Made by a program: the position numbers and the translations under genes. Of a stretch of 64,000 nucleotides of DNA, positions 12,719 to 62,069 are shown piece after piece; position 1 is the first letter of the stretch; every line of letters begins with the position of its first letter. This DNA comes from Shigella phage Sf17: the sequence record MF327004. One strand, 5' to 3'. The notes beneath the pieces were generated by a model that searched no databases, was not told the DNA's origin, and saw nothing but the letters and a program-made list of their open reading frames with translations.

Positions 12719-12729
12719 TTATTTTATAA

Positions 12730-12745
12730 GGGGCTACACAGCCCC
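12730..12745 (+). other. intercistronic hairpin GGGGCT-acac-AGCCCC
   Basis: Perfect 6-bp stem between the two fibre genes, no T-run; same stem sequence recurs at 46455 and 51519. Confidence 0.4.
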
Positions 12746-12763
12746 TAGAAAGAGGATTTATAA

Positions 12764-44715: not shown

Positions 44716-44728
44716 ACGTATATGATTA

Positions 44729-44756
44729 GGGAACTGTAAAAGGTTCCCTTTTTATT
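44729..44756 (+). terminator. rho-independent terminator
   Basis: GGGAAC - tgtaaaag - GTTCCC followed by TTTTTATTTT. Confidence 0.55.
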
Positions 44757-44767
44757 TTGGAGAAATC

Positions 44768-45283
44768 ATGTACCATTCAAATCTGAAACGTGCTGCTGCA
44801 ATGTCTGTTCTTCGTCTTGATTTTGATGAGCGTCAAGAGTTCATCGATTCACATCAGTATGACCCTTCAAATTCTAACCACATGGTACTTTGGAACCGTG
44901 GTAAGTTTCGTGATAGTGCCTTGTTCCAGTACTACCCTCACTATACTATTGACAACCTCTATGAATACTGTGTTGTCAAGAACACTATTGCAACTCTTAA
45001 TAAGCTTTGTAGATATTCTGGAAAGAAAGCTTTCACATTAGGCCACCATAAGCCCGTGACAAAAGGTGGAGAGCACCATTGCTCGAACTGGTTTATCCAG
45101 ACTCAAGAAGATAACCAGAAGCAGGGAGAGAAGCTTCCAGAAGCCCCTAAGATGACTTGGGAGGAACAGAAAGCATATCTTAAAAATAATATGCCACCAA
45201 TGCTTGACAGGGAATATGCAGTTCTGGCAATATCACTCTTGTTGAAGCTTGAGACAGTTTATGAGGCAACTTATCATGGCTAG
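44768..45283 (+). CDS. HNH-type endonuclease-like protein
   Basis: His/Cys-rich core GHHKPVTKGGEHHCSNW resembles HNH motif; free-standing gene. Confidence 0.4.
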   Translation: MYHSNLKRAAAMSVLRLDFDERQEFIDSHQYDPSNSNHMVLWNRGKFRDSALFQYYPHYTIDNLYEYCVVKNTIATLNKLCRYSGKKAFTLGHHKPVTKGGEHHCSNWFIQTQEDNQKQGEKLPEAPKMTWEEQKAYLKNNMPPMLDREYAVLAISLLLKLETVYEATYHG

Positions 45284-45554
45284 AGAACAATGGGATATCA
45301 AAGAGCTTATTAGCGAAGCTGGAAATGGTAGTGAGATGTATATGATACGTGGTCACGTCCCAGATGCACTTGCTATTGAGATGATAGACCACTACTCCAA
45401 CGGATTCTATAAAGAGTTTGGAGAGCCAAATATTGAACGTACTTGGACAAAACCAGTACCAGACGGAACAGGAAACTGTTCAGTTATCTACCACATTGTA
45501 GACCCAAAGAAATGTAAATCAGCTATGGCTGTAACATTTGTAACTTTTGACTGA
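45276..45554 (+). CDS. hypothetical protein
   Basis: ATG 45276 overlapping HNH stop; about 92 aa. Confidence 0.35.
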   Translation: MAREQWDIKELISEAGNGSEMYMIRGHVPDALAIEMIDHYSNGFYKEFGEPNIERTWTKPVPDGTGNCSVIYHIVDPKKCKSAMAVTFVTFD

Positions 45555-45564
45555 GAGAGATATT

Positions 45565-46446
45565 ATGAAAACTACTATTCGAGTTCTACTTAATTCAAAT
45601 TCCAAAGGTTCTCATCAAGAGACCTTCAACATTATCCAGTTCCCTTCTGGGGAGATTGGTGGTAACTTCTCAGAAGACTTAGTAGGCTTTGTTGAACATG
45701 CTGCTGGTAAGATTGAAAATGTTATCTTCACTGTACAAGGCTATGACAAAGACACACTCTTTGCATTGGCTATGGCTAAAGAGGCTATTGACCGTTTGAT
45801 TCCTCAGAAAGCAACCATGAAAACTGTTCTTTTTGGATTCTTACCAAATGCTCGCTATGACCGTCACATGTTTAAAGGTGATTCAGCAGCACTTAAAGTC
45901 TTTGCAAATCTTGTAAATGCTATGGGGTTTGATGCAGTATGTGCTCTGGATACTCACAGTAATGTAGCAGAGAACTTGTTTAAGTGCTTCTACAACATCC
46001 CTCAAAAAGAGGCAGCAGTCCACTTTGCAAGTGACCCACGTATTGATTACTTAGTGGCTCCAGATGCAGGTGCAGCTAAGAAGACTGAAGAGGCTGCTAA
46101 AGAGGTTGAGAAACCTTATATTACAATGGCGAAGGTACGAAACCTGAAAACTGGTGAAATCACTGGTATGCGCATCCTTGATGATGTAGACTTAACAGGT
46201 AAGACTGTTATGATTCTGGATGATATCTGTGATGGTGGTCGAACCTTTATCGAGGCTGCAAAGTATCTTCGTGAAGCTGGAGCAGAACGTGTAGAGCTTT
46301 ATGTTACTCATGGGATTTTCTCTAAAGGTGTTGAAAATCTCCTTGACAATGGTATCGACCATATCTACACTACAAACTCACTAGGGGATGAAAAAGACCG
46401 TGGTCTTTCCCACTTCTCACAAGTGACCGTAGCAAATATTGAATAA
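45565..46446 (+). CDS. prs: ribose-phosphate pyrophosphokinase (PRPP synthetase)
   Basis: Segment GKTVMILDDICDGGRTFIEAAKYL matches the PRPP-binding loop; ATG 45565 after GAGAGAGA (track start 45547 is TTG). Confidence 0.75.
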   Translation: MKTTIRVLLNSNSKGSHQETFNIIQFPSGEIGGNFSEDLVGFVEHAAGKIENVIFTVQGYDKDTLFALAMAKEAIDRLIPQKATMKTVLFGFLPNARYDRHMFKGDSAALKVFANLVNAMGFDAVCALDTHSNVAENLFKCFYNIPQKEAAVHFASDPRIDYLVAPDAGAAKKTEEAAKEVEKPYITMAKVRNLKTGEITGMRILDDVDLTGKTVMILDDICDGGRTFIEAAKYLREAGAERVELYVTHGIFSKGVENLLDNGIDHIYTTNSLGDEKDRGLSHFSQVTVANIE

Positions 46447-46454
46447 CAACTTTA

Positions 46455-46470
46455 GGGGCTGAAAAGCCCC
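46455..46470 (+). other. intercistronic hairpin GGGGCT-gaaa-AGCCCC
   Basis: Perfect 6-bp stem with GAAA loop between prs and NAMPT genes; identical to the hairpin inside the rIIB promoter spacer. Confidence 0.4.
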
Positions 46471-46490
46471 ACTTTGAGAGAGATAAAAAG

Positions 46491-48308
46491 ATGACTAAAT
46501 CAATCTATGCAGTACCAGCAGGTCTTAATGCAGATGCTTATAAAGCGGGTCATATCTATCAGTATCCAGATGCTACACAGTATCTTATGCTGAACTTAAC
46601 ACCTCGTGGAGATAAATGGTTTAACTCTCCGTTAGAGATTGATGGTGTTGTAGCTTTTGGTATTCAGCGTTTTGTAAAAGACTATCTGGTAGACCACTGG
46701 AATGCAACGTTCTTTGAACGTGATAAGAAAGAAGCCATTGACGAAATCTTGGAAATCATGAATGGTGTCCTTGGTGCAGATGCTATTGGTCGTCAACATT
46801 GGGAAGAACTTCATGACTTGGGTTACCTGCCTGTTGAAGTCTACTCTGTAGAGGAAGGTACAATTGTCCCTATGCGTGTCCCGATGATTGTCTTCAAAAA
46901 CACTGTAGAAGGATTCCATTGGGTAGCTGGTTATCTTGAAGATGCTTTCTCTGCTGAAATCTGGAAGGCTTGTACGATTGCAACTATTGCACTGCATTAC
47001 AAACGTATCTGTAAGCAATGGGCTGATAAGACCTGTGACAATGACTTCCATTTACCTTGGCAGTGTCATGACTTTGCAATGCGTGGTATGTCTGGCTTCA
47101 CAGATGATGCGTTTAACGCAGTAGGTCACCTGACAAGTTTTAAAGGTACTGACAGCTTCCCTGCTGTATATACAGCTAAACGTGCATATGGTCAGTTTAT
47201 GAATGTAGGTGAGATTGGTAACTCTGTCCCGGCTACTGAGCACTCTGTGATGTGTGCAAACATCTCATGGAACAGTCTTAACAAAGAGGTAAGTGATTGG
47301 CATCTATCGCATTCTGACAACTTACTTGATGCAATGCGTTGGCGTGGTGAGGTAGAAACTTTCCATCGCCTTCTGACAGAAGTTTACCCAACTGGTATTG
47401 CAAGTGCCGTATCAGATACTTACAACTTCTGGCGTACTGTTACACAGATTCTGCCAGAGCTACGTAATGTAATCCTGAATCGTGATGGTAAGTTGGTAAT
47501 CCGTCCAGACTCTGGAGACCCTGTTCACATTGTCACAGGTTACAAAGCCATTGAATGGGAAACTGCTAAGTCAATGTTCTATAAGCACATGAAAGAGCTT
47601 GCACCGAACAATACACATCTGCATGACACAATCTTGAATTGTGAAATGTCTGATATTGGCTTTGGGTTCTCTGCTTGGCTAATCTCTGAAGGTTATGAGA
47701 TGGTTGTTGATAAAGAAGATTTTGAATCTGCTGATACAATCAACCTTATTACTGCTCAGAAGACTGGACAGTTTACTGTGAAGCGTATGTTAACAGCAGA
47801 AATTGATGGAGCTATCCACACGCTGTATAACATCTTTGGTGGCACTGTTAACTCCAAAGGGTACAAAGTACTGGATGAGCACATTGGGCTAATCTACGGT
47901 GATTCTATCACTCTGGAAAGGGCTAATGAGATTCTGTCACGTCTTGCTGATAAAGGTTTTGCAAGTTCTAACGTAGTGTTTGGTGTAGGCTCATACACCT
48001 ATCAGTACCTGACTCGTGACACCTTTGCATTTGCTGTTAAAGCAACTCTTGCACAGATGGACGGTCAAGAAATTATGCTGGCTAAAGACCCTAAAACTGA
48101 CAGCGGTCTTAAGAAGTCTGCTTTTGGTGGAGTTGTCCCTATGTGGGATGGTGACAAGCTGGTAGCTGTAGATGGTTTTGGCTTTGCAGAGTTTGAAGGT
48201 GCAATTGACAACTGTCATAGTGCTTTGAAACTGGTATTTAGCAACTCGCAACCTTATGGTTACATTAACCTGCGTGATGTTCGAAATACTATTGACAAGC
48301 AACTTTAA
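46491..48308 (+). CDS. nadV: nicotinamide phosphoribosyltransferase (NAMPT/NadV)
   Basis: 605 aa; segments LVIRPDSGDP and IYGDSITLERANEI match the NAMPT active-site region; about 100-aa insertion relative to canonical length. Confidence 0.75.
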   Translation: MTKSIYAVPAGLNADAYKAGHIYQYPDATQYLMLNLTPRGDKWFNSPLEIDGVVAFGIQRFVKDYLVDHWNATFFERDKKEAIDEILEIMNGVLGADAIGRQHWEELHDLGYLPVEVYSVEEGTIVPMRVPMIVFKNTVEGFHWVAGYLEDAFSAEIWKACTIATIALHYKRICKQWADKTCDNDFHLPWQCHDFAMRGMSGFTDDAFNAVGHLTSFKGTDSFPAVYTAKRAYGQFMNVGEIGNSVPATEHSVMCANISWNSLNKEVSDWHLSHSDNLLDAMRWRGEVETFHRLLTEVYPTGIASAVSDTYNFWRTVTQILPELRNVILNRDGKLVIRPDSGDPVHIVTGYKAIEWETAKSMFYKHMKELAPNNTHLHDTILNCEMSDIGFGFSAWLISEGYEMVVDKEDFESADTINLITAQKTGQFTVKRMLTAEIDGAIHTLYNIFGGTVNSKGYKVLDEHIGLIYGDSITLERANEILSRLADKGFASSNVVFGVGSYTYQYLTRDTFAFAVKATLAQMDGQEIMLAKDPKTDSGLKKSAFGGVVPMWDGDKLVAVDGFGFAEFEGAIDNCHSALKLVFSNSQPYGYINLRDVRNTIDKQL

Positions 48309-48322
48309 AACAGTATGATAAG

Positions 48323-48344
48323 AGGCTCCTACGGGAGCCTTTTT
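48323..48344 (+). terminator. rho-independent terminator (UACG tetraloop)
   Basis: AGGCTCC-TACG-GGAGCCT followed by TTTTT. Confidence 0.6.
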
Positions 48345-48349
48345 AATTT

Positions 48350-48577
48350 GTGGAGAATGATATGAGATTTAACACGGATTTATTTTATACAGATAGCACT
48401 GGATTTTTTGGTGGATATTGTGTAGCATCTTGGCAATTATGGTTCTCAGAAGAGTACAGGGGTGATATGCAGGTTTTTGTAGAAGACTATAAGTTCCCTG
48501 CAAAACCTACTAAACGCCAGATTAGAAAGCTTCGCAGAGAGTTTCGTAAAACTTGCAAAGGGATTAACAGGCTATGA
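48350..48577 (+). CDS. hypothetical protein
   Basis: 75-aa ORF with GTG start after GGAGAATGA; basic C-terminus. Confidence 0.35.
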   Translation: MENDMRFNTDLFYTDSTGFFGGYCVASWQLWFSEEYRGDMQVFVEDYKFPAKPTKRQIRKLRREFRKTCKGINRL

Positions 48578-48909
48578 AAATTAAACAGATGAATGTTAAT
48601 TTAATCATTGAAGAACGTTGGGAAAACATCAATCGCCCTGAAGATGGTCATAAGTTTATCAATGAACTGTTTCAAGCAGCACAATCAGAGTTAGCTTCTG
48701 AGATTTATACAACGGTTACTTTGAAGGTCTATATCAAAGGTCTTCCACAGAACCATCAAGAAGCTCTTGATTTGTTTCAAGAAAGGTTTTACAATCCAAA
48801 CAAAAAGATACTTGAGAATAGTTTTGCAGTATCTTCGAGTATTGTTCATGACAGGAGTTTTGTCCTATTCAGAACTATAGGAGATAAGGTATGCAAGGTT
48901 ATTGGTTAG
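48574..48909 (+). CDS. hypothetical protein
   Basis: 111-aa ORF overlapping previous stop. Confidence 0.4.
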   Translation: MKIKQMNVNLIIEERWENINRPEDGHKFINELFQAAQSELASEIYTTVTLKVYIKGLPQNHQEALDLFQERFYNPNKKILENSFAVSSSIVHDRSFVLFRTIGDKVCKVIG

Positions 48910-49070
48910 AAATTGTTCTTTCACTCGGTTGTATAGTTGCTATTGCAGTGTTACTATGCAAGTACTTCTCAGAGACTGAACCTTGTGATGAATGTGAAGG
49001 TTCTGGGGTAGTTGGTATAGGGCATTGTTGCCCTTACTGTAATGGAACTGGAAAGAAATTTAAAAAGTAA
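48891..49070 (+). CDS. small membrane-anchored Cys-rich protein (zinc-ribbon-like)
   Basis: 59-codon ORF MQGYWLEIVLSLGCIVAIAVLLCKYF..CDECEGSG..CCPYCNGTG; below ORF-track cutoff. Confidence 0.3.
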   Translation: MQGYWLEIVLSLGCIVAIAVLLCKYFSETEPCDECEGSGVVGIGHCCPYCNGTGKKFKK

Positions 49071-49071
49071 C

Positions 49072-49099
49072 TTGACAGTGGCATCTATAAAATTATATA
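49072..49099 (+). promoter_or_regulatory. sigma70-type promoter TTGACA-16-TATATA upstream of rIIA
   Basis: Starts 2 nt after preceding stop; GTGGCA (49078-49083) / TGCCAC (49103-49108) inverted repeat overlaps it; AAGGAG SD precedes rIIA ATG. Confidence 0.5.
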
Positions 49100-49132
49100 G
49101 TTTGCCACATCGACAACTAAGGAGATATTCTT

Positions 49133-51505
49133 ATGCGCATGGTAAATGACCACGCAACGGTAATTAAAAGCTCAAGTACACTGGAAACCTCTCAGGCTCA
49201 GATTAAGATGACACCTGAAATGTTCAGTCTTCTAAGCTCAGGTGTTTACACATATAAAGAACGTGCTGTAATTCGTGAATTGTCATGTAACGCAGTAGAT
49301 GCTCACATTGATTCTGGTAACGTTGATAAACCTTTCTTGGTTCACTTACCAACTCGTTTCGAGCCATTCTTTGAAGTTCGTGACTTTGGTACAGGACTGA
49401 CTCATGATAAAGTTATGAAACTTTACATGACCTATGGAGAATCTACAAAGAACGATTCAAACGACTACATTGGTGCTATGGGTATCGGTTCAAAGTCCCC
49501 ATTTGCAATTGCTCAGTCATTCACTGTATCAAGCTATGTTGATGGTGTAGTTAACAAATACTCAGTTTACCTTGAGAATGGTATCCCTCAAGTAACTAAG
49601 TTGACTACTAACCCAACTACAGAGCCAAATGGTTTAGCTGTTCGAGTAGCGGTATCCGATAACCGTATCAACAAGTTTCATGAAGAAGCGAGCAATGTAT
49701 ACTCGTACTTTAAAGTTAAGCCAGAGTGTAATGTTGAGTACTATGACATTCTTGAAGCAATGACTTCCATTTCTCGTGAAGATGGTGTCTATGATGCAAT
49801 GAAGTACAAAGAGAACTGGCGTTCAAATAGTAACAGTGTCCATTTCAATGTAATCATGGGTAATATTGCTTATCCTGTTGAAATGGGTGAGTTGCTTGGT
49901 TCAGAGTTTACAAGCATTCTGCCTCAGTTCTTCCGTAGTGCTGTAGACCTTGTTAACATCTACATGCCAATTGGTTCAGTGGCTATTGCTGCATCTCGTG
50001 AAGCATTGCAGATGAATGAGACCACTAAGACCAAGATTGTTGAAGCTGTGAAGAAAATCACTAAGACAATCGTAGAAGATGTGGTAAAAGAGATTGCTAA
50101 CAAGCCAACTCTGATTGATGCTGCTCAAGCCTATGATACCATGAGGAAGGAGGCTCGTGAAATCTTTATTCACGTCCAAGATTCTCTGGAATGGCAAGGC
50201 CAGAACTTGAAAAAACTTGAACAAAAACTGTTAGGTATCCGTCGTGGTCAGTTAACTGAAGCAGATGGTTCTCCGTCATTCTTGAAAGATGATGCAGGTA
50301 ACTTGAGGCTTGACAAAGATGGTAATCCAGTTCCTAATATTGGTAATCTGTATGAACCTGTAGCATACTACAAGTACAGCAGTCTGGAGAACCGTATTCG
50401 AGCAACTTCAGCAACTTATTCACAAGATGCAGCAATGTTTAGTATCTTTGGTGCAATGAGTAAAGATAAGTTGAGCAACTATTTGTTCCTTATCAATGAC
50501 CGTCGAAACAAGAACGGGTCTGAGAAGACAACTGGTAAAAACCAGATTATCCGTGGAGCTTGCCGTGACCGTGAACAGGAAGACTCTAACTTCCGTCGCT
50601 ACAACGGTATTGCTTTCTTGTTCAGCAGTCAGCAGCAATTCGATGAGTTTGTAGATTTGCATATGCTTGACAAGAGTCTGTTAAGTGTGCATACAATGTC
50701 ATCTAAAGAGCACCACTATGAGAAACGTACTATTGTACGTGGTGTTGTAAAACTGTATAAAGCATTTATATGTCCAAATACTGACATGATTCGCTATACA
50801 GAGGTTAAAGAGAACTTTGATGAGATTGAAGAACCACAACTGTATATCAAAGCACAGAGTGATGAAGTGATTGGTGGAATCTTCTCATGTTCACCAGAAC
50901 GTGCTGCAACGTTGATGACAGAGTTAACTGGACAGTCAGTTTATGTCTTCCGTAAAGCCAACTGGAAAAAGATTCCTGAAGACTGGACAGAAGTCAATGA
51001 ACAAGTGATGAAAGATTTTATTGATAATACTCATTGGATTGAGTATCACCGTTACTTGACTCACCAATATATGACTAATAATCATGATATCACTGATTGT
51101 AATGTGATTTCTCGAAACTTTATGTTTGCTGATAAGCGTAAGTCCAGAGGCCACATTTACAGTAAAGACTTTAAGAAGACTATTTTCTTAGAGGGGAATG
51201 AAGAGGCTATAGAAGCAATGTTTGGACGCTTGGCATATACTGCTGCACCAGTTGCTTACAAAGATATTACCAGCACTCTTGATACCATTCGTAGGAATAT
51301 GAGAGGTTCTTGTAAGCCAAGAAAGGTTCTGGATAATGCTAAGAAGCGTCTTGAAAGCAAGTTCAAAGATTACTTTGAGAAACGCCGTAAAGAAAACTTC
51401 TTGCTTTCTAATCTGGATTGGAATAAAGTATCACCAGTCGAAGTTGGTAAGTTTTTAGGTTTTGACACTAAGAGCATTCCAGAAGATACTGTATGCTGGG
51501 ATTAA
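49133..51505 (+). CDS. rIIA: rIIA-like protein
   Basis: 790 aa; N-terminal GHKL-ATPase-like motifs RAVIRELSCNAVDAH, RDFGTGL, IGAMGIGSKSPF parallel T4 rIIA. Confidence 0.8.
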   Translation: MRMVNDHATVIKSSSTLETSQAQIKMTPEMFSLLSSGVYTYKERAVIRELSCNAVDAHIDSGNVDKPFLVHLPTRFEPFFEVRDFGTGLTHDKVMKLYMTYGESTKNDSNDYIGAMGIGSKSPFAIAQSFTVSSYVDGVVNKYSVYLENGIPQVTKLTTNPTTEPNGLAVRVAVSDNRINKFHEEASNVYSYFKVKPECNVEYYDILEAMTSISREDGVYDAMKYKENWRSNSNSVHFNVIMGNIAYPVEMGELLGSEFTSILPQFFRSAVDLVNIYMPIGSVAIAASREALQMNETTKTKIVEAVKKITKTIVEDVVKEIANKPTLIDAAQAYDTMRKEAREIFIHVQDSLEWQGQNLKKLEQKLLGIRRGQLTEADGSPSFLKDDAGNLRLDKDGNPVPNIGNLYEPVAYYKYSSLENRIRATSATYSQDAAMFSIFGAMSKDKLSNYLFLINDRRNKNGSEKTTGKNQIIRGACRDREQEDSNFRRYNGIAFLFSSQQQFDEFVDLHMLDKSLLSVHTMSSKEHHYEKRTIVRGVVKLYKAFICPNTDMIRYTEVKENFDEIEEPQLYIKAQSDEVIGGIFSCSPERAATLMTELTGQSVYVFRKANWKKIPEDWTEVNEQVMKDFIDNTHWIEYHRYLTHQYMTNNHDITDCNVISRNFMFADKRKSRGHIYSKDFKKTIFLEGNEEAIEAMFGRLAYTAAPVAYKDITSTLDTIRRNMRGSCKPRKVLDNAKKRLESKFKDYFEKRRKENFLLSNLDWNKVSPVEVGKFLGFDTKSIPEDTVCWD

Positions 51506-51512
51506 AAATAGT

Positions 51513-51541
51513 TTGACAGGGGCTGAAAAGCCCCTTAGAAT
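51513..51541 (+). promoter_or_regulatory. sigma70-type promoter TTGACA-17-TAGAAT with hairpin filling the spacer
   Basis: Spacer is GGGGCT-gaaa-AGCCCC-T; 44 nt upstream of rIIB ATG. Confidence 0.5.
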
Positions 51542-51584
51542 ACGAACCACTAAGTAATTTTAAACAACAAAGAGAGATATTGAA

Positions 51585-52715
51585 ATGACTACTAAGACTA
51601 AAGCACAAATCGACGCAGAAATCTATGCACTGGTTAAAGAAGGTAAACTGACCAAAACTGCAATCGCTCTGAAGTATAACACTTCAACCCGTTCGGTAGG
51701 TCGTGCTGTAGAGCGTCATGAAGCAACGCTGCTGTCAGGGAAAACCAAAGCAAAACCTGCAAAGACTCTGAAAGATATTGCAAAGAGTGCAAAGAGTGCT
51801 AAGAAAGCTAAAGCGACCAAGAAAGTATCTAAGCAGAAACCTGTTACAAAAGCTGTTAAAGAAGCAGTCAAAGCAGAACCTGTAAATGCTCTGCATGAAG
51901 CAATGCAGAATAACAGCCAGATTGAATACATGATTACTGGTGATTCTGTTATCATGACTTTCGGTGCAGAGTCTGAGATTGTTGAGTCAACTCATCCTAA
52001 CTACACTGATATTGTAATGGCTGTTGTTTCAGGTGAGTACAAGAAAGCTTTTGAACTGATGAACATTCGCAAGTCTATTGAGAACTTCACTCAAGGTGCT
52101 GTAACCATCAAAGGTGACAACCTGTATTACGGTGCTGTTCAGATGCGCTCAACTCTGGTAGACCGTATTCTGGATATGATGAAGAAAGGTGATAATGGTT
52201 TTGTTCGACTGATTGCATTCTTCGAAAAACTGATGGAAAACCCATCAAAAGATTCTGTAGAACAACTTTGGGGCTTCGTATCACACCTTGATGTTGAAAT
52301 TGATGAAGAAGGTTATATCATCGGCTGGAAGAAAGTCACAACTCGTGGTGGTAAACTGTTTGACTCTCGTACCTGCAAAGTTCCAAATGATTTGGGTAAC
52401 ATTGTAGAGATGCCACGTTGGATGGTTGATAATAACCGTCATGTAACCTGCTCTCAGGGTCTGCACGTTGGTGCTTGGGATTATGTAACTAGCTTCTCTG
52501 GTGACACTATCCTAAAAGTTCGTGTTCATCCTCGTGATGTTGTTTCAGTACCAACTGACTACAACGACATGAAAATGCGAGCTTCCCGCTATGAAGTTGC
52601 AGCGATTGTAAATAGTCGCCGTGAAGTCATCAAAGAGTGGGATGGTTCAGAAGCACTCCACGTAGTTGTAGGTACTGCTGGTGAACTAATTTCTCAGCGT
52701 AAACGTGAAGTTTAA
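51585..52715 (+). CDS. rIIB: rIIB-like protein
   Basis: 376 aa; segments RSTLVDRILDMMKKGDN, CSQGLHVG, VRVHPRDVVSVPTDYNDMKMRA parallel T4 rIIB; directly downstream of rIIA. Confidence 0.8.
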   Translation: MTTKTKAQIDAEIYALVKEGKLTKTAIALKYNTSTRSVGRAVERHEATLLSGKTKAKPAKTLKDIAKSAKSAKKAKATKKVSKQKPVTKAVKEAVKAEPVNALHEAMQNNSQIEYMITGDSVIMTFGAESEIVESTHPNYTDIVMAVVSGEYKKAFELMNIRKSIENFTQGAVTIKGDNLYYGAVQMRSTLVDRILDMMKKGDNGFVRLIAFFEKLMENPSKDSVEQLWGFVSHLDVEIDEEGYIIGWKKVTTRGGKLFDSRTCKVPNDLGNIVEMPRWMVDNNRHVTCSQGLHVGAWDYVTSFSGDTILKVRVHPRDVVSVPTDYNDMKMRASRYEVAAIVNSRREVIKEWDGSEALHVVVGTAGELISQRKREV

Positions 52716-52731
52716 TAAGTAAATTCCTAAA

Positions 52732-52756
52732 GGGGCTGCTTCGGCAGCCTTTTTTA
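52732..52756 (+). terminator. rho-independent terminator (UUCG tetraloop)
   Basis: GGCTGC-TTCG-GCAGCC followed by T6. Confidence 0.6.
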
Positions 52757-52757
52757 T

Positions 52758-52785
52758 TTGAAAAATGTGCAGGTTAGTGTATAAT
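52758..52785 (+). promoter_or_regulatory. sigma70-type promoter TTGAAA-16-TATAAT
   Basis: Consensus -10 TATAAT; spacer contains TGTGCAGGT, the core of the 56.9-57.2 kb repeats. Confidence 0.5.
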
Positions 52786-52816
52786 TGTCTGCATGTTTAA
52801 CAAAATAGGAGTGCAA

Positions 52817-53365
52817 ATGAAGAAATTTGTTTTAGGTTTGTGCTTATTCTTTACAGCACATTTAGCTACAGCATCTGACTGTCCAGAGCTTACAATCAGC
52901 CAGAAAGTTAATATGTTAAAAGCATATAACTATGGCGAAGGGCAGATGGGAAAAGGTTGGGGAATCCCTTTAGCAGCTATAGCCTTACAAGAGTCACAAT
53001 TAGGTGTCATGTTAGAAAATAAAAAGACTCATGATTATGGTGTTTTCCAGAATCACTTGAAGACTGTTGTAAAGCGTAACAAGGTATCTCCAAAGGTTGC
53101 TAAGAAGAAGCTAGTAAGTGACTTCCATTACTCAGCGAAAGAGGCTCATAAGGAGCTATTATTCTGGACTAAGGTTCATGGTAACCCAGATGGAAAGTAC
53201 TCTATGAAGCGTGTCCTAGCTTCTTATAATGCTGGTTACAAATACAAGATTCCAAAGGCTAGACAATACTCTCAAGATGTGTACAATAACATGAAACTGC
53301 TGGCTCAATGTGAGTTTGCAACAAACATTAAAAAGGTAAAATATGAGCGAATCAAAACAATTTGA
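52817..53365 (+). CDS. lytic transglycosylase-like protein with signal peptide
   Basis: ATG 52817 after AGGAG; signal-peptide-like MKKFVLGLCLFFTAHLATA; motifs ALQESQLG, YGVFQ, SYNAG resemble lytic transglycosylase catalytic region. Confidence 0.45.
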   Translation: MKKFVLGLCLFFTAHLATASDCPELTISQKVNMLKAYNYGEGQMGKGWGIPLAAIALQESQLGVMLENKKTHDYGVFQNHLKTVVKRNKVSPKVAKKKLVSDFHYSAKEAHKELLFWTKVHGNPDGKYSMKRVLASYNAGYKYKIPKARQYSQDVYNNMKLLAQCEFATNIKKVKYERIKTI

Positions 53366-54038
53366 TATGGTTCTGTGTCATGCTTATGATATTAAGCCAC
53401 TTGATTTAGATATCAGTTCTGCAAGTTGGTCAGATATTGCTAAAGCTGACTTTGCAGATACAGCAAGAGATGTTGTGTGTAGCTTTGAAGACTTCCACTC
53501 AACAAAGACACAGATTCCTTGTCAGGATTTGCTAACAGGTAAAACTGTATATGTTGGTCGTAACAGCCTTATCTTGGTTGCAAAGAACTTGGAAGAAAAA
53601 CGTAAAATGGTCTTAGCAGACATTGATGGTGTTCTTACAAGTTTTGACAAGAAACTTAATGCAACTTTGTTAGATGATGGTACTTACTCACAGTATACTA
53701 ACTTGGTAGACTCTCGCAGAGCTAAACCAACATATGTTTTTAACATTCTGTGTGGTATATCAAGAAATGCTGATATAGGATTCTTAACTGCTCGTGGTGA
53801 ATCACAAAGAGTTGTCACACATCTTTTCCTGAATGAGAATGTAGACAGTGATTTCCTACTGTTTATGCGTGGATTTGGTGACAATGAGATTAGTGCAGAA
53901 AGTTTGAAAGTTCGTATGCTTCAGTCTTGCATTCTACCTTACTATGATGTAGTATGCTTTATAGAAGATACAGTGAAGAACGTGGAGAAGGTTGAAAGAA
54001 TCTTACCACACATCAAAACAATGCTTGTTAAAAACTGA
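53343..54038 (+). CDS. HAD-superfamily hydrolase-like protein
   Basis: 231 aa; motif LADIDGVLT (DxDG[TV]) typical of HAD phosphatases/nucleotidases. Confidence 0.4.
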   Translation: MSESKQFDMVLCHAYDIKPLDLDISSASWSDIAKADFADTARDVVCSFEDFHSTKTQIPCQDLLTGKTVYVGRNSLILVAKNLEEKRKMVLADIDGVLTSFDKKLNATLLDDGTYSQYTNLVDSRRAKPTYVFNILCGISRNADIGFLTARGESQRVVTHLFLNENVDSDFLLFMRGFGDNEISAESLKVRMLQSCILPYYDVVCFIEDTVKNVEKVERILPHIKTMLVKN

Positions 54039-54049
54039 GAGAGTAAACC

Positions 54050-54514
54050 ATGCAAAACATTATTACAGTAGCTATCGATGCTTCCGGTAACAAATCACAG
54101 GTAGTTCGTGAGATTATCAAAAGTAATTTCGATGGTAAAATCTTTCGTGCAGTAAACGTGAAAGCTGATGGTAACATTCGTGAGTATCGTGCAATGTTGA
54201 ATGTCACAAAACACGTTAAGGGTGTTGGTTCAACTACTGCTCATAAAGAAAATCTGATGACTATCTATGATATGGGTATGGCTTCAGAGTTAGGTGCAAA
54301 AGGGATTGTACAATCCGGTGCTCCTTACCGTTCTTTCAATCTGGAAACTGCTCTTATGCTTTCCTTTACAAGTGGTTCTCAAACTACCACTTACCTCTTC
54401 ACAGATACTGCAACGGTTTCTGCGATTAAGGACAATACCATTAAGGCTGGCGTAGCTGCTGCTTCAAAAGCCTCAACAATGGCAGCAAATGTCCTTGCGA
54501 AAGTTCTTGGTTAA
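54050..54514 (+). CDS. hypothetical protein
   Basis: 154-aa ORF followed by terminator; N-terminus ITVAIDASGNKSQVV. Confidence 0.4.
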   Translation: MQNIITVAIDASGNKSQVVREIIKSNFDGKIFRAVNVKADGNIREYRAMLNVTKHVKGVGSTTAHKENLMTIYDMGMASELGAKGIVQSGAPYRSFNLETALMLSFTSGSQTTTYLFTDTATVSAIKDNTIKAGVAAASKASTMAANVLAKVLG

Positions 54515-54525
54515 AGTTATTATAG

Positions 54526-54548
54526 AGGCTCCTTCGGGAGCCTTTTTC
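54526..54548 (+). terminator. rho-independent terminator (UUCG tetraloop)
   Basis: AGGCTCC-TTCG-GGAGCCT followed by T5. Confidence 0.6.
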
Positions 54549-54566
54549 ATTTCTAGGAGAAGTTAA

Positions 54567-54914
54567 ATGACGTTTAAAGAATTTTGTCAAGCAGCTTTTG
54601 TAATCATCTTCTTAACAGGTGTTGGTGCTTGGGGAGGTTACACTTACAAGACCAGCCAAGTTAATGAAAAGGAGCTAACTAACCAGAGACTGGTAAGTGT
54701 TGCTAAAGATGCTTATCAAGAAGGTTTATCAAATCTTAGCTCCAATTACAAAAATGATTTGAAAGATGTGCTTGCTAAAAACAAACACACCAAAGAGGTA
54801 TTGAACTATGAAAAAACTAAGACAGTCTTTATTAATGATTGTGCTACTGAGCCTTATGTCAGGGTGTTCAACGAGCAAAGTGAGCAGTACCTTCAAAAAC
54901 TCCCAAGTAAGTGA
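54567..54914 (+). CDS. putative i-spanin (inner-membrane spanin subunit)
   Basis: 115 aa; N-terminal transmembrane segment AAFVIIFLTGVGAWGGY then charged helical periplasmic part; o-spanin-like lipoprotein gene starts inside it in another frame. Confidence 0.45.
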   Translation: MTFKEFCQAAFVIIFLTGVGAWGGYTYKTSQVNEKELTNQRLVSVAKDAYQEGLSNLSSNYKNDLKDVLAKNKHTKEVLNYEKTKTVFINDCATEPYVRVFNEQSEQYLQKLPSK

Positions 54915-55077
54915 GAGTGACAAGTACACTCAAGAAGAAGCACGATATGAGGTTAAAGGCACTAAAGGTGCAGACCTTGCAAGTGCTCTTGAGTTTTATC
55001 GTGATGGTTACTATGAATGTACTATTAAGGCAAACAATTTGATTGATATGATTTTGTTAGGGAATAAGCAGCAATGA
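54808..55077 (+). CDS. putative o-spanin (outer-membrane lipoprotein subunit)
   Basis: 89 aa; MKKLRQSLLMIVLLSLMSGC lipobox (MSGC); starts within the i-spanin gene (+1 frame) and extends beyond it, with AAGAGG SD. Confidence 0.45.
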   Translation: MKKLRQSLLMIVLLSLMSGCSTSKVSSTFKNSQVSESDKYTQEEARYEVKGTKGADLASALEFYRDGYYECTIKANNLIDMILLGNKQQ

Positions 55078-55343
55078 CAGAGAAGAATGAAACATTTTTT
55101 GTGGAAGGTTATCTTCTGTTACCAAGACCAAGTAACACTTACATGAGATTTGACATTATGCCAACGGTTATGGATGATGTAACTTGTCACATCTTTATGC
55201 AGGGTGTTTCTGCACAACTTAAACATGTTGGAAGAGATTGCAAAATACGTGTTGACAACCATCCTGAAATCAACGAGAATCACTACACATGGTTCGGAGA
55301 AGATTCTAAAGAAATCTATGCAGTCCTTAAAACGAGGAAGTGA
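55074..55343 (+). CDS. hypothetical protein
   Basis: 89-aa ORF overlapping previous stop. Confidence 0.4.
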   Translation: MTEKNETFFVEGYLLLPRPSNTYMRFDIMPTVMDDVTCHIFMQGVSAQLKHVGRDCKIRVDNHPEINENHYTWFGEDSKEIYAVLKTRK

Positions 55344-55352
55344 GGTTTAGTG

Positions 55353-55679
55353 ATGCAACTAGATGGTAAGAATTATGTAGCCGTCTTTTCAGACGGTGAG
55401 AAAGAAATTGGTACAGCACAAGTCTGTCACAGTGGTAAAGAGTTTCTCTATGGGGTTGTTGCATTCATTGGTACTCGTGGAGATATGAAGTCTTTTAAAG
55501 ATTGTGTTGACAAGCTTGAAGAATCCATAGAGAATCATTGGTGTCTGATATGGCTTAATGCAGAGAATGTTAAAGAACGCTATGCAAAAGTTGGTATCCA
55601 TATTGAAAGCATCGAACATGTTGACCTGTTTGAGCTAACTGAAAAGGTGATGTATGAAAGCAATTCTGGTAAGAAGTAA
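55353..55679 (+). CDS. hypothetical protein
   Basis: ATG 55353 after GAGG (track start 55350 is GTG); about 108 aa. Confidence 0.4.
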   Translation: MQLDGKNYVAVFSDGEKEIGTAQVCHSGKEFLYGVVAFIGTRGDMKSFKDCVDKLEESIENHWCLIWLNAENVKERYAKVGIHIESIEHVDLFELTEKVMYESNSGKK

Positions 55680-55914
55680 AGTTACACGTCAAGTATTAGC
55701 AGGGGCTATATTTGTTGGAAGGGATGAGGTGATGCCATTTGGTTCACGAATCTATAAAGGTTCTGTACTATCACATAGCCACTTTAAGGCTGGTGATTTT
55801 TGTCACTATATTAACAGGGGCTATCTAAGAGAGGAACTTGGATATTGGAAGACCCGCATTAAGGAAAGATACGGTGACAGAGTATTCTTACAAGAGGTAA
55901 TTTCAAATGGCTGA
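55654..55914 (+). CDS. hypothetical protein
   Basis: 86-aa ORF with AAAGGTG SD. Confidence 0.4.
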   Translation: MKAILVRSKVTRQVLAGAIFVGRDEVMPFGSRIYKGSVLSHSHFKAGDFCHYINRGYLREELGYWKTRIKERYGDRVFLQEVISNG

Positions 55915-56107
55915 TTTCTGCACTAAGTGTTCTGTTGAGATGTTTGGAAAAGATACAGGAGACTTAAAAGGTCTCTTTACAAAAGCAGAGTTTGAAGCTG
56001 GTTCAGCAATGCCAGTAATCTGTGAAGGCTGTGGTGCTTTATGGGTAGACCATGAAGGTAACCGAGTTAAACCCTCTGAAGATAACGAACGTTGGGAGCA
56101 TTACTAA
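55907..56107 (+). CDS. small Cys-rich protein (zinc-ribbon-like)
   Basis: 66 aa with CTKCS ... CEGCG cysteine pairs. Confidence 0.4.
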   Translation: MADFCTKCSVEMFGKDTGDLKGLFTKAEFEAGSAMPVICEGCGALWVDHEGNRVKPSEDNERWEHY

Positions 56108-56108
56108 T

Positions 56109-56903
56109 ATGGGTATCGTAAAAATTATTAAAGGTGATATCTTTAAAGACTTTGATGGTAAGAAGTTTGATATCATTGGTCACGGTTGTAACTGCATGAA
56201 CTTGATGGGTTCAGGTATCGCAGCAACAATTGCTAAACGCTACCCAAAAGCTTATGAAACTGACGCTGAGGTTTATGCTACAGTAGGTGGTGAAAATCAT
56301 AACCCTAAGCACCTAATGCTTGGTAACATCTCTGTAGCACGTTTTAAGCAGGGTCGGATTGCTAACCTTTATACTCAGGTTATCACTGGCAAAGATGCAC
56401 GGTACAATGCTTTAGAAGCAGCTTTGCAGCGTCTGAATAATTACTGCAAAGTCAACCAACTTAAGAAAGTTGGGCTTCCTATGATTTGTGCAGGGATTGG
56501 TGGTCTTGATAGTATGGCTGTGCTGTCCATTATTAATCAGACTATGAAAGATGTTGACGTATATATGTATGTCTATGAAGATAAGATGTACAGTCAGTTG
56601 ACTAGTCCTGTTACTGGTTGGGAGAACTTCAGTGAGCCTCAATATTTTGATGGTGTTGCTGTGGTAGGCAAGGATAAAGTTACCCTCAAGGTGAAGCGTA
56701 ATGGCAAGGTACACACCAGTTACCCTCCGGTTGAGAAGTACAATCGAAGTAACGCTCAAGTTACCCACCCGTTACAAGGTCACCACCACAGAGCGGTAAC
56801 GTTTGGTGATGATGCAAGTGTGTATATCAATGCGACTACAGAAGAGTTTGCAGAAGATTATATCACACATGAAAACGTAAACTATGTTGAAGCACGTAAC
56901 TAA
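56109..56903 (+). CDS. macro-domain protein (Poa1p-like ADP-ribose-phosphate phosphatase family) with C-terminal extension
   Basis: ATG 56109; motifs KGDIFK, DIIGHGCNC, GSGIAATIAKRYP, GLPMICAGIGGLD parallel yeast Poa1p (IHSCNC ... GGGIAYQLALRYP); about 100 extra C-terminal residues. Confidence 0.5.
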   Translation: MGIVKIIKGDIFKDFDGKKFDIIGHGCNCMNLMGSGIAATIAKRYPKAYETDAEVYATVGGENHNPKHLMLGNISVARFKQGRIANLYTQVITGKDARYNALEAALQRLNNYCKVNQLKKVGLPMICAGIGGLDSMAVLSIINQTMKDVDVYMYVYEDKMYSQLTSPVTGWENFSEPQYFDGVAVVGKDKVTLKVKRNGKVHTSYPPVEKYNRSNAQVTHPLQGHHHRAVTFGDDASVYINATTEEFAEDYITHENVNYVEARN

Positions 56904-56930
56904 TAAGTTACCCAGATAAACATAGACAAG

Positions 56931-57156
56931 CCCTCCAAAGTTTGAGTTTAAAATCTCAGGTAAGGGGGGCTTTTTCATTTTAAATTTGTGCAGGTATAGT
57001 TGCATAGAACTCTGGACAGATTTCTTTAGCTGAACTCCAAAGGGAAAATTCATTTCAAATTTGTGCAGGTTTAGACTCCAAAGAGCTTTTTCATTTTCAA
57101 TCTGTGCAGATGCAGTTGGACTCCAAAGGGAAAATTCATTTTCAAATTGTGCAGGT
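56931..57156. repeat. tandem direct repeats (4 copies, about 36-bp unit at 41-45-bp period)
   Basis: CTCCAAAG-N-TTCATTT(T)CAAAT(T)TGTGCAGRT at 56931/56971-56995 (split copy), 57035-57070, 57076-57111, 57121-57156. Confidence 0.65.
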
Positions 57157-57173
57157 AGGTAGCTGTAGGAAAC

Positions 57174-57208
57174 CAGCCCCACCATCCCCTCTTACTCCCC
57201 TTCCTCCC
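57174..57208. other. C-rich polypyrimidine tract
   Basis: AGCCCCACCATCCCCTCTTACTCCCCTTCCTCCC, G-free on + strand, directly after the repeat array. Confidence 0.4.
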
Positions 57209-57250
57209 AAAAGTCAAGAGAAAAATTTGTAGAGAACTGAAAAATAATTC

Positions 57251-57279
57251 TTGACTAGATTTCTGTTTTAGTGTATTCG
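57251..57279 (+). promoter_or_regulatory. possible sigma70-type promoter (TTGACT-17-TATTCG)
   Basis: Good -35, weak -10. Confidence 0.3.
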
Positions 57280-57329
57280 CATACGTGCGTTCTATTCACG
57301 AAACATCAAAAATATTTTAAAAATTTTTG

Positions 57330-57358
57330 TTGACTTCATAAATCCAGTCTTATAGTAT
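57330..57358 (+). promoter_or_regulatory. sigma70-type promoter TTGACT-17-TAGTAT
   Basis: In AT-rich region; followed by CATCAACGGGAAACATCCC hairpin and the conserved leader CAATCCTAAACTGGAGAATCTAAAAATG. Confidence 0.5.
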
Positions 57359-57407
57359 TTGCATCAACGGGAAACATCCCAACAATCCTAAACTGGAGAA
57401 TCTAAAA

Positions 57408-57614
57408 ATGTTATATCAACGTGAGTTAATGATTGTTGACAACAACAAAACAAATAAACGTCGTTTCTATATGCTAATTTGTGATGTTTGGCAACGTATC
57501 TCAGAAAAGGATTTTGATGAATATGTTGATACGTCAATCAGGTCTGATTGTTATTTGACAACTCATACAAGACAGTTTACAAGGCATACAGCAATTTATT
57601 ATTATAACGTTTAA
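57408..57614 (+). CDS. hypothetical early protein
   Basis: 68-aa ORF behind conserved leader/SD CTGGAGAATCTAAAAATG. Confidence 0.45.
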   Translation: MLYQRELMIVDNNKTNKRRFYMLICDVWQRISEKDFDEYVDTSIRSDCYLTTHTRQFTRHTAIYYYNV

Positions 57615-57619
57615 AGTGC

Positions 57620-57648
57620 TTTACATGGGGTTTAAAAGCTAGTATATT
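57620..57648 (+). promoter_or_regulatory. early-cassette promoter TTTACA-17-TATATT
   Basis: Spacer starts TGGGG, -10 followed by AAGCCCCA (inverted repeat spanning the -10), then conserved leader. Confidence 0.5.
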
Positions 57649-57698
57649 AAGCCCCAGATAAAGAGCTTTACCAACAATCCTAAACTGGAGACTCTAAA

Positions 57699-58079
57699 AT
57701 GAAATATCGTGCGCCTAAATTTATCAACAAAGAAAACTTTCGTAGTATCTTAGAAGAAACTATGAAAGAAAACTTCAAAGGAAAAATAATTGTTGTTCAC
57801 GCTTACAATTTTAAGTATGATGTTAATGGTAACCGTATTAACCACTACAAAGCTACTATGCTTGACGGTACATTATCCGGTGAAAAAGCTATCATAAATG
57901 CTATTGCAGGACGTGGTAAAACTGTGATACGATGCGAAAAAAGACGCTATCAAGGCGGTAAATATGGGTATGAAGATGCAATGTACCATCTTGATAAAAT
58001 GGGGTATGATGTAGAGAAAGCTGGAGTATCTCAAACTATTGGTAGTGACGGCTACGTTACAGTTTTCAAAATTAACTAA
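57699..58079 (+). CDS. hypothetical early protein
   Basis: 126-aa ORF behind conserved cassette leader. Confidence 0.45.
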   Translation: MKYRAPKFINKENFRSILEETMKENFKGKIIVVHAYNFKYDVNGNRINHYKATMLDGTLSGEKAIINAIAGRGKTVIRCEKRRYQGGKYGYEDAMYHLDKMGYDVEKAGVSQTIGSDGYVTVFKIN

Positions 58080-58088
58080 ATAAAGTCC

Positions 58089-58117
58089 TTTACATGGGGT
58101 TTATAATTAGATAAGAT
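58089..58117 (+). promoter_or_regulatory. early-cassette promoter TTTACA-17-TAAGAT
   Basis: Same cassette architecture. Confidence 0.5.
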
Positions 58118-58170
58118 AAGCCCCAGATAAAGAGCTTTACCAAACAATAACCTAAACTGGAGTATCAAAA

Positions 58171-58428: not shown

Positions 58429-58436
58429 TAAAGTGC

Positions 58437-58465: not shown

Positions 58466-58519
58466 AAGCCCCAGATAAAGAGCTTTACTAACCAATAGTC
58501 CTAAACTGGAGAATCTAAA

Positions 58520-61762: not shown

Positions 61763-61791
61763 TTGACACTGAAAACGCAAACCAGTAGAGT
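61763..61791 (+). promoter_or_regulatory. sigma70-type promoter TTGACA-17-TAGAGT
   Basis: Begins right after preceding stop; followed by ACTCATCAACGGGGCAAG and cassette leader. Confidence 0.5.
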
Positions 61792-61847
61792 ACTCATCAA
61801 CGGGGCAAGTTAGAAGCCCCAACAATCCTAAACTGGAGATTCAAAAA

Positions 61848-62069
61848 ATGTTGCAAGTTCTTAACGTAAAAACCATTGATTTTAAATTCTCAAATGTTCG
61901 TCGTACCTATTTACAACCGTTTAATAACCCTGTTAGAATTCCCAATGATGACGCTAAAAAGTTGATTGATGAAATTCTAGCTAATGGCGGTTATCTGGCT
62001 AGTCATAAGCAGTATAATGATGAGGCTGGAAGCCTGATAAATGAGTTTACATATTATTACTACAAATAA
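61848..62069 (+). CDS. hypothetical early protein
   Basis: 73-aa ORF behind cassette leader. Confidence 0.45.
   Translation: MLQVLNVKTIDFKFSNVRRTYLQPFNNPVRIPNDDAKKLIDEILANGGYLASHKQYNDEAGSLINEFTYYYYK

Follow-up and report, generated by a model that had tools for sequence, protein, structure and literature searches.

A short intercistronic stem-loop of Felix O1-like phages, built into the rIIB promoter, resembles the promoter/stem-loop cassettes of T4-type phages

The closest described systems are the promoter-early stem-loops (PeSLs) of the T4-type phages RB49/phi1, PST/T4 and nt-1/KVP40, whose stem-loop has been proposed to end or attenuate transcription coming from upstream (Arbiol et al. 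2010, PMC2839356; Comeau et al. 2014, PMC4122927). The 211/210 stem-loop of RB49 reduced the expression of a downstream lacZ to a degree comparable with rrnB T1 (Arbiol et al. 2010, PMC2839356), and there are also degraded PeSLs, with a -35 and a stem-loop and without a -10 (Comeau et al. 2014, PMC4122927). Felix O1-like phages are mentioned in neither of these papers (PMC2839356; PMC4122927). For its part, the Felix O1 genome paper records the early cassette of that phage just as a direct repeat of 57 bp, has no entry for the rIIB promoter or for the hairpins of the rIIA-rIIB and prs-NAMPT junctions, and describes read-through and temporal regulation as not understood. We analysed a stretch of 64,000 nucleotides from Shigella phage Sf17 (sequence record MF327004; hereafter, the window), a Mooglevirus of the Ounavirinae and thus a relative of Felix O1. 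It is ca. 99% identical to Shigella phage Sf19 (ca. 98-99%, with a few indels, outside 49000-53000), and the gene names used here (tail-fibre genes, prs, NAMPT, rIIA and rIIB) are taken over from the Sf19 and Mordin annotations. The element under study is a 16-nt hairpin with the stem GGGGCU/AGCCCC (G4CU/AGC4), which occurs at three intercistronic sites and in one of them makes up the spacer of the rIIB promoter. Judged by their layout, the rIIB element and a set of early cassettes in the same genome best fit PeSL-type cassettes in the Ounavirinae, and the other two hairpins promoter-less copies of the stem-loop.

The exact 16-mer GGGGCTGAAAAGCCCC is found twice in the window, at 46455-46470 and 51519-51534, in both cases on the + strand (0.00 expected), and produced 0 matches in 100 shuffles. 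Allowing any loop (GGGGCTNNNNAGCCCC) brings in a third site, GGGGCTACACAGCCCC at 12730-12745, with the loop ACAC (0.01 expected). The original prediction, made from the letters of the sequence, had reported both the identical pair and the acac variant; the two reports are exact, and the count of GGGGCTGAAAAGCCCC exceeds the shuffled expectation (2 vs 0.00). Each of the three hairpins is on the + (sense) strand and falls in a short gap that separates + strand genes, 8-13 nt past the upstream stop codon and ahead of the next ribosome-binding site, as listed here with the parts of the rIIB promoter.

12729..12746, + strand: site 1, stem-loop A-GGGGCU-ACAC-AGCCCC-U, between two tail-fibre genes (fibre stop ends at 12718; next fibre ATG at 12764)
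46455..46470, + strand: site 2, stem-loop GGGGCU-GAAA-AGCCCC, between prs and NAMPT (prs stop ends at 46446; NAMPT Shine-Dalgarno (SD) at ca. 46476, ATG at 46491)
51518..51535, + strand: site 3, stem-loop A-GGGGCU-GAAA-AGCCCC-U, with 7 bp and a 4-nt loop, 13 nt past the rIIA stop (rIIA stop ends at 51505; rIIB ATG at 51585)
51513..51518, + strand: -35 hexamer TTGACA of the rIIB promoter, from a promoter scan; its last A doubles as the first base of the stem
51536..51541, + strand: -10 hexamer TAGAAT of the rIIB promoter, from a promoter scan; it directly abuts the stem
51571..51587, + strand: rIIB SD region (GAGAGA) and ATG, the 3' end of the composite element

Counting the flanking A/T, the stem has 7 bp at sites 1 and 3 and 6 bp at site 2. 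The intergenic regions fold with -12.7 kcal/mol (z -2.64), -12.8 kcal/mol (z -3.59) and -14.7 kcal/mol (z -3.28) at sites 1, 2 and 3, respectively, and the isolated 16-mers with -11.3 and -10.1 kcal/mol. The distance from the end of the stem to the SD is 3-5 nt at sites 1 and 2, and ca. 35 nt at rIIB. More generally, pairs of GGGG...CCCC at most 30 nt apart occur at 16 sites in the window, 14 of which fall within the 8.8% of it that is non-coding.

The rIIB promoter consists of TTGACA, a 17-nt spacer and TAGAAT, an 11/12 match. Its spacer, 51519-51535, is the 16-nt hairpin plus one T (TTGACA-GGGGCTGAAAAGCCCCT-TAGAAT), so that the hairpin does fill the spacer, as had been claimed; an AT-rich segment, GATTAAAAATAGT, precedes the TTGACA, and the rIIB leader has ca. 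43 nt. Published reverse transcription PCR of Felix O1 placed the maximum of rIIB at 10 min and that of rIIA, which lies upstream, at 25 min, a timing that fits a separate rIIB promoter. Among the three 16-nt hairpins, the rIIB copy is the only one located in a promoter. No credible promoter was found at sites 1 and 2, the best readings there being TTTATA-17-TAGAAA and no -10 whatever; both have a -35-like sequence (TTTATA/CTTTA) closely upstream, without a -10.

Conservation was followed in a sample of orthologous loci from IMG/VR, comprising 30 rIIB loci, 28 NAMPT loci and 4 fibre loci. From 49000 to 53000 the window is 100% identical to Sf19; across the approximately 30 Felix O1-like and Moogle-like genomes, the rIIB and NAMPT proteins show merely 75-80% identity. 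In this background, the rIIB stem GGGGCT/AGCCCC is unchanged in 27 of the 30 loci, the exceptions being L017 and L033, with AACCCC as the 3' arm (a G-to-A change), and the distant L032, which has another stem. Likewise, 29 of the 30 loci retain TTGACA, L032 among them (L009 has TTGACT), and every Felix O1-like or Moogle-like locus has TAGAAT or TAAAAT as its -10. The site 1 hairpin is the same in four related contigs, and that of site 2 is present in 22 of 28 loci.

The loop behaves differently from the stem. At rIIB, the loops of the Moogle/SUSP group read GAAA or GCAA and those of Felix O1-like genomes UUGA or UCAA, and across all orthologues we found GAAA, GCAA, GCAT, ACAC, UUGA, UCAA, UAAA, UGAA, UACA and others. 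UUGA and UCAA are reverse complements of each other and both occur on identical flanking haplotypes, hence the loop must have inverted several times. NAMPT-site loops are paired in the same way (UAAA/UUUA, UGAA/UUCA), and the site 1 loop is ACAC in the window (12736-12739) and GTGT in Sf19 (39759-39762) with identical flanks; sites 1 and 3 show no indels, loop inversion only. Such inversions recur between near-identical genomes (loci L011-L033 and L041-L061), with the pairs ACAC/GTGT, TTGA/TCAA, TAAA/TTTA and TGAA/TTCA, and look like a hairpin-mediated flip-flop inversion. This pattern indicates that selection retains the stem and the promoter hexamers, and not the loop. GAAA is a GNRA loop, and the original prediction had accordingly called the hairpin GNRA-type; because the loop varies and flips while the stem stays, and is ACAC, not GNRA, in the third hairpin, we discarded GNRA as the signal and consider it incidental.

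Hairpins of other sequence occupy the same positions in more distant relatives. Past rIIA, phiEa21-4 has GGGCUG-GAAA-CAGCCC without a -35 or -10, Wc4-1 has GUGGUGGC-CUAACAA-GCCACCAU with no clear promoter, and in L032, an IMG/VR contig whose rIIB is 57% identical, there is a TTGACA, and the -10 lies inside the stem AAGUGG/CCACUU. At the fibre-gene junction, Felix O1 carries the published 'terminator t76', gggggctgtacagccctcttt, and phiEa21-4 a canonical terminator, GGGGACUC-UUCG-GAGUCC plus UUUUUAUU. The tail of the NAMPT-site hairpin in Felix-like genomes is AUUUUG. Since distant relatives carry hairpins both past rIIA and between the fibre genes, and synteny at sites 1 and 3 extends over the whole subfamily, the hairpin at these two positions is probably an old, structurally conserved feature, whereas its fusion with a promoter at rIIB would be clade-specific, with the same positions spanning from full terminators to tail-less stems. 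The evidence for conservation of structure comes from these few distant genomes; within the Felix/Moogle clade a formal covariation test is uninformative, because the stem hardly varies. Taken with sites 1 and 2, the promoter-less hairpins past rIIA of phiEa21-4 and Wc4-1 also contradict the suggestion that the hairpin keeps a fixed position relative to promoter elements. Indeed, in the window a stem of this kind can lie in the spacer (rIIB), around the -10 (early cassettes) or downstream of the start site (other early promoters).

Several observations bear on whether the element works as RNA or as DNA. For 26 of 30 intergenic hairpin elements, the predicted fold is more stable on the sense than on the antisense strand (Wilcoxon p = 2.7e-5); at the three focal sites, all among the 26, the advantage is 0.5-1.7 kcal/mol, small because their stems are perfect palindromes. 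Related stems contain wobble pairs that form on the sense strand only, as in GGGGUUU/AAGCCCC of the early cassettes, in GGGGU...GCCCC of an Sf19 minus-strand gap and in the phiEa21-4 stem GGUGUUUA/UAAGCACC, which combines a sense-only wobble with a compensatory change from G-C to U-A. Together with the finding of unrelated stems in the same geometry, this strand bias and these wobbles favour an RNA structure over a sequence-specific DNA operator, and the nearly invariant stem may be recognised by a factor.

The original prediction also described a GGGGTT...AAGCCCC pairing around the -10 of early promoters, and this is borne out by five copies, against 0.02 expected, plus two further variants (GGGGTTATC...GATAGCCCC). 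The cassettes and other promoter/stem combinations of the window are as follows.

57611..57699, + strand: early cassette, copy 1 of 7
57620, 58089, 58437, 59038, 60064, 60832 and 62314, + strand: starts of the early-cassette -35 hexamers
61763..61850, + strand: second early-promoter type, TTGACA, 17 nt, TAGAGT, ACTCATCAAC, with GGGGC-(9 nt)-GCCCC in the 5' leader
57330, 60553 (truncated) and 63610, + strand: relatives of the second type, with a promoter-less copy at 59737
49072..49108, + strand: rIIA promoter, TTGACA, 18 nt, TATAGT, with a stem, GTGGCA/TGCCAC, that encloses the spacer and the -10

In all, seven early cassettes plus four copies lie within 57.3-64 kb. The cassettes are ordered as TTTACA, UG-GGGGUUU..., -10 (TAAGAT or TATATT), AAGCCCC, leader and GGAG-ATG. 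In seven of seven, the 5' arm is in the spacer past TTTACA and the 3' arm starts directly past the -10, so that the promoter (TTTACA, 17 nt, TAAGAT) has its -10 enclosed by a stem with a U.G wobble on the sense strand. The corresponding stem is GGGGCTTA/TAAGCCCC in Felix O1, and in the phiEa21-4 cassettes GGGG/CCCC has become GGUG/CACC, a compensatory change that retains the U.G wobble. The rIIA promoter has the same design with an unrelated stem sequence, and in the region 15143-15228 a promoter with another unrelated inverted repeat, CAAGATGGTG/CACCATCTTG, shows the same geometry. The stem GGGG(C/U)U / AGCCCC is common to the 16-nt hairpins and the early cassettes, which, with 14 of 16 GGGG...CCCC sites in non-coding DNA, supports the idea of one reused building block. 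Of the original prediction, the observation itself is confirmed and the shared regulatory block supported, and the GNRA type and the fixed promoter position are not supported.

The early region has a mosaic make-up: 56900-64000 is not covered to at least 80% in one place by any phage record, including those of genomes that are 97-99% identical elsewhere, against 31 records for the rII region. Compared with Sf19, all five indel breakpoints of the region (57612, 59736, 60599, 62093 and 63045) are located at cassettes. Four of the five are deletions of 30-60 nt in the window that end at the 5' arm or the loop of a GGGG...CCCC stem; these four deletions remove promoters, and the one at 60599 also removes the start of the downstream open reading frame (ORF).

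How closely do these elements match PeSLs? We read the RB49 cassettes directly, among them TTGACA-GGGGATCACGTATCCCC-TATACT for 211|210 and TTGACA-GGGGATCGGTGATCCCC-TATAAT for 206|205, and the architecture of these two is the same as at rIIB. Both have sigma-70-type -35 and -10 hexamers with a spacer of ca. 17 nt, the hexamers at rIIB being kept in almost all orthologues, and between them a stem made of a G-run and a C-run (at rIIB, and in RB49 at 211|210, 206|205, 210|209, 191|190 and 187|186). The previous stop is in an AT-rich segment that precedes the -35, and the 3' end is formed by an SD with its ATG; the leaders are of similar length (ca. 43 nt at rIIB, 30-45 nt in RB49), and G.U pairs are on the sense strand. 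A stem around a TAAGAT -10 is found both in our early cassettes and in RB49 226|225 and 228|227, and by this arrangement the early cassettes match, and would belong to, the class of PeSLs whose stem encloses the -10. Moreover, the early cassettes occur in several copies beside small ORFs of unknown function, within a mosaic region, and coincide with indel breakpoints, so that their region resembles a hyperplastic region rich in PeSLs. A leader is also shared, as ACCCCCATCGAAACGAAATA...GGAGAATCAAATG in RB49 and AACCCCATCGAAACGAAACA...GGAATCAAAAATG in phiEa21-4: phiEa21-4 10040-10110 and the RB49 PeSL 227|226 have a near-identical leader of 19-20 nt, (A/C)CCCCATCGAAACGAAA(C/T)A, in a similar SD context, which suggests that regulatory cassettes may be shared or exchanged between T4-type phages and Ounavirinae.

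There are differences as well. The present phage belongs to the Ounavirinae and is not T4-type; the rIIB copy is single, between conserved genes and syntenic in 30 loci, whereas PeSLs occupy hyperplastic regions next to ORFans; and, of the three focal hairpins, those of sites 1 and 2 stand without a promoter. The stem is G4CU/AGC4 with a 4-nt loop here, and G4AUC-N3-GAUC4 in PeSLs. Finally, function was tested with a reporter in RB49, and is predicted here from sequence. The design itself is widespread, since the pattern TTGACA-GGGG(N8-9)CCCC(N0-1)-TANNNT has 81 matches in IMG/VR, 47 of which reach at least six consecutive pairs (ca. 14% expected by chance), with many unrelated stems. In 36 of the 42 distinct matches that carry a hairpin, an SD and an ORF come 17-45 nt downstream. 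Per contig, there are 5-6 copies in RB49-like phages and one, at rIIB, in Moogle/SUSP-like phages.

Our preferred reading, to which we assign a probability of roughly one half, is that the 16-nt element is the standard intercistronic RNA stem-loop of this lineage, attenuating or ending upstream transcripts, and that at rIIB it has been fused to a promoter for restart. From the arrangement of the parts we infer promoter activity, termination or attenuation, and RNA stabilisation, as follows. The G4CU-loop-AGC4 hairpin would act in the RNA of the upstream gene, and not through its loop sequence: polymerase coming from that gene would transcribe the stem, the hairpin would form in the nascent RNA and, with a weak A/U-rich hybrid downstream, a fraction of the complexes would pause or release. 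Placed 8-13 nt past the stop codon, the hairpin would most likely attenuate or end read-through transcription, and a transcript ended at the stem, or trimmed back to it, would be protected by a stable 3' hairpin whatever the efficiency of termination. At rIIB, rIIA transcripts would meet the hairpin and then the A/U-rich -10, because the hairpin is the spacer between -35 and -10; new rIIB transcripts would start ca. 7 nt past the -10 and never contain the hairpin, which would uncouple the expression of rIIB from that of rIIA.

The resemblance to intrinsic terminators is partial. A G+C-rich stem of 6-7 bp with a 4-nt loop directly downstream of a stop codon is what such terminators have; elsewhere in Sf19 (record 9778-9791, minus strand) GGGGC-GAAA-GCCCC is followed by UUUUAUUU, and Felix O1 and phiEa21-4 carry annotated terminators at orthologous positions, but the focal hairpins differ in having no U-tract. 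As an intrinsic terminator we counted a G+C-rich hairpin with a U-rich tract, at least five U in eight, starting 0-2 nt past it. The clear terminators of the window, with UUCG/UACG loops and T-runs, are at 36055, 40181, 48323, 52734 and 54526. The tails of the hairpins are UAGAAUAC, ACUUUGAG (site 2) and AGAAAGAG, that of site 1 also being given as AGAAAGAGG.

A number of results weigh against the preferred reading. None of the three hairpins has a U-tract, their tails holding 3, 3 and 0 U in 8 nt, which rules out a canonical terminator; a scan of 44001-64000 for terminator-like structures did not list sites 2 and 3, and by the usual rules, with no U-tract, intrinsic termination should be weak. 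The RB49 211|210 stem-loop likewise lacks a U-tract in the sequence that we read, and because that stem-loop was active in the test, an A/U-rich -10 may act as a weak tail; then again, the drop in lacZ was seen with an in vivo reporter, and RNA decay could explain it instead of termination. At the prs-NAMPT junction, phiEa21-4 has no hairpin, and in 6 of 28 loci the site 2 gap is occupied by an ORF for an HNH endonuclease, so the hairpin is dispensable there. Within the Felix/Moogle clade, the stem shows no compensatory or G.U changes, and the few variants that do exist break the pairing on the sense strand, for which reason the stem may be recognised by its sequence (AACCCC in L017 and L033; UGGGCU...AGACCC in L043 and L044). 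In the literature that we searched, we found no data on transcript 5' or 3' ends for Felix O1-like phages.

Termination and stabilisation would both fit the sequence data. In bacterial mRNA decay, intercistronic hairpins stabilise the upstream message, and the element could be purely of this sort, letting polymerase pass and blocking 3'-to-5' exonucleases (PNPase, RNase II) after an endonucleolytic cleavage further downstream, so that the fibre, prs and rIIA messages would outlive those that follow them, as with repetitive extragenic palindromic (REP) and other intercistronic stem-loops of bacterial operons. A stable G-C stem directly past the stop, without a U-tract and followed by A/U-rich single-stranded sequence, agrees with this possibility, as do the sense-strand bias and the irrelevance of the loop, expected of a steric barrier. 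We nevertheless hold it to be rather unlikely, because relatives have true terminators at orthologous positions and because it leaves unexplained why the stem so frequently interlocks with promoter hexamers. Stable tetraloop hairpins were reportedly described in intercistronic regions of T4 by Tuerk et al. in 1988, and REP-type stabilisers of mRNA 3' ends by Newbury et al. in 1987; the hairpins studied here are similarly short, very stable and placed between cistrons of a polycistronic message, but their loop class is not conserved, so the stability of special tetraloops is not under selection here. It is improbable that the copies are an evolutionary residue, that is, collapsed or 'half' promoter/stem-loop cassettes left by recombination, whose palindromes persist as hot spots for recombination or replication slippage. 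The cassette stems are indeed the indel breakpoints between the window and Sf19, the loop inverts repeatedly, an HNH gene has replaced the site 2 hairpin, and sites 1 and 2 have a -35-like sequence without a -10, comparable to degraded PeSLs (Comeau et al. 2014, PMC4122927); however, a stem that is conserved while loop and flanks change at 75-80% protein identity indicates purifying selection, and the subfamily-wide synteny of sites 1 and 3 also speaks against mere remnants.

Another explanation reads the palindrome GGGGCT-N4-AGCCCC as a DNA operator, bound by a dimeric phage or host protein that controls the rIIB promoter from its spacer and marks the other two sites. It draws on a stem that is identical at three loci, nearly invariant in the clade and devoid of compensatory changes around a free 4-nt centre, on the promoter spacer as a classic operator position, and on a Cro/CI-like helix-turn-helix protein encoded by the phage (Sf19 gp65). 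We regard it as quite improbable, because sites 1 and 2 offer no promoter to control, the hairpins of distant relatives at the same place have unrelated stems, other promoters of the window use unrelated inverted repeats (GTGGCA/TGCCAC, CAAGATGGTG/CACCATCTTG) in the same geometry, the U.G wobbles of related stems pair on the sense strand only, and RB49 and many unrelated phages have the same design with other stems. Hardly probable at all is a translation insulator, a local hairpin that would prevent upstream coding RNA from pairing with the next ribosome-binding site and might modulate re-initiation: at sites 1 and 2 just 3-5 nt do separate the stem from the SD, yet at rIIB it lies ca. 35 nt away, transcripts from the rIIB promoter lack it entirely, and the overlap with the promoter would go unexplained. 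Processing by RNase III, part of the RNA-processing signal first suggested, is implausible for a stem of just 6-7 bp, as this enzyme was taken to need ca. 20 bp or more of (interrupted) double-stranded RNA, and we ruled it out for the 16-nt hairpin. At the gathering score, Rfam gave 0 matches in the whole window.

Beyond the intercistronic stem-loop preferred here, we tentatively consider a broader possibility, rated as doubtful: instead of being peculiar to the T4 lineage, PeSL-type cassettes may form a mobile regulatory module that unrelated families of virulent phages share and probably exchange, and of which the G4CU/AGC4 hairpin would be the minimal form. This stems from the layout, near-identical leader of 19-20 nt and SD context that RB49 (Straboviridae) and the Ounavirinae share. 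The stems would then be hot spots at which deletions, gene replacements and loop inversions change the order and the expression of genes, and their near-invariant sequence might also be read by a phage factor that times the passage from early to middle expression.

Other features of the window deserve mention. In the early cassette at 57611-57672 and its six sisters, the -35 and the -10 are both within an extended imperfect inverted repeat, UAAAGUGCUUUAC...GAUAAAGAGCUUUA, that folds into ca. 20 interrupted pairs with -20 to -26 kcal/mol and, according to this predicted fold, could be a substrate of RNase III in read-through RNA. A conserved leader, TCCTAAACTGGAGAATCTAAAATG, is found upstream of 11 small early ORFs (57386-63695), and the cassette leader carries CCCATCGAAACGAAAC...GGAGAATCAAAATG. 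GGAG, the cleavage motif of the T4 ribonuclease RegB, is present in the SD of the early cassettes; the protein encoded at 52793-53365 was labelled RegB-like by the Mordin annotators, but Pfam gave just a sub-threshold SLT match, so no link to a ribonuclease can be claimed for it. Upstream of the first early promoter, 56953-57156 contains four tandem-like copies of a 43-nt repeat (...TTCATTT(T/C)AAATTTGTGCAGGT).

Further composites of terminator and promoter are located at 44698-44749, 48292-48343, 54495-54545 and 52734-52785. In three of them a promoter-like -10 abuts a canonical terminator hairpin, and the transcript would therefore start inside the stem; in the other one, the T-run of the terminator overlaps the -35 of the next promoter. 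Compared with Sf19, the window has three insertions of ca. 190-300 nt each (23570-23867, 42414-42605 and 48379-48572), and the last two are small ORFs placed directly past a terminator-plus-SD, at 42372 and 48320. The HNH ORF between prs and NAMPT of some Felix O1-like genomes (ca. 981-1481 in L035, L036, L038-L040 and L046) encodes 167 amino acids and matches Pfam HNH_3 with E = 1e-18.

What is new here is the existence of Ounavirinae members of the PeSL-type promoter/stem-loop design, a design that was already known. They alter no general principle and will not surprise a specialist, being, on the preferred reading, gene punctuation and not a new kind of signal; their use is for annotation and engineering. 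Felix O1-like phages are employed for Salmonella typing, biocontrol and therapy, and the control of their transcription is essentially undescribed. Recognition of PeSL-like elements provides a map of the likely boundaries of their transcription units and explains where their genomes gain and lose small genes. It also suggests a possible compact part for phage engineering, combining a terminator and a promoter in ca. 30 nt.

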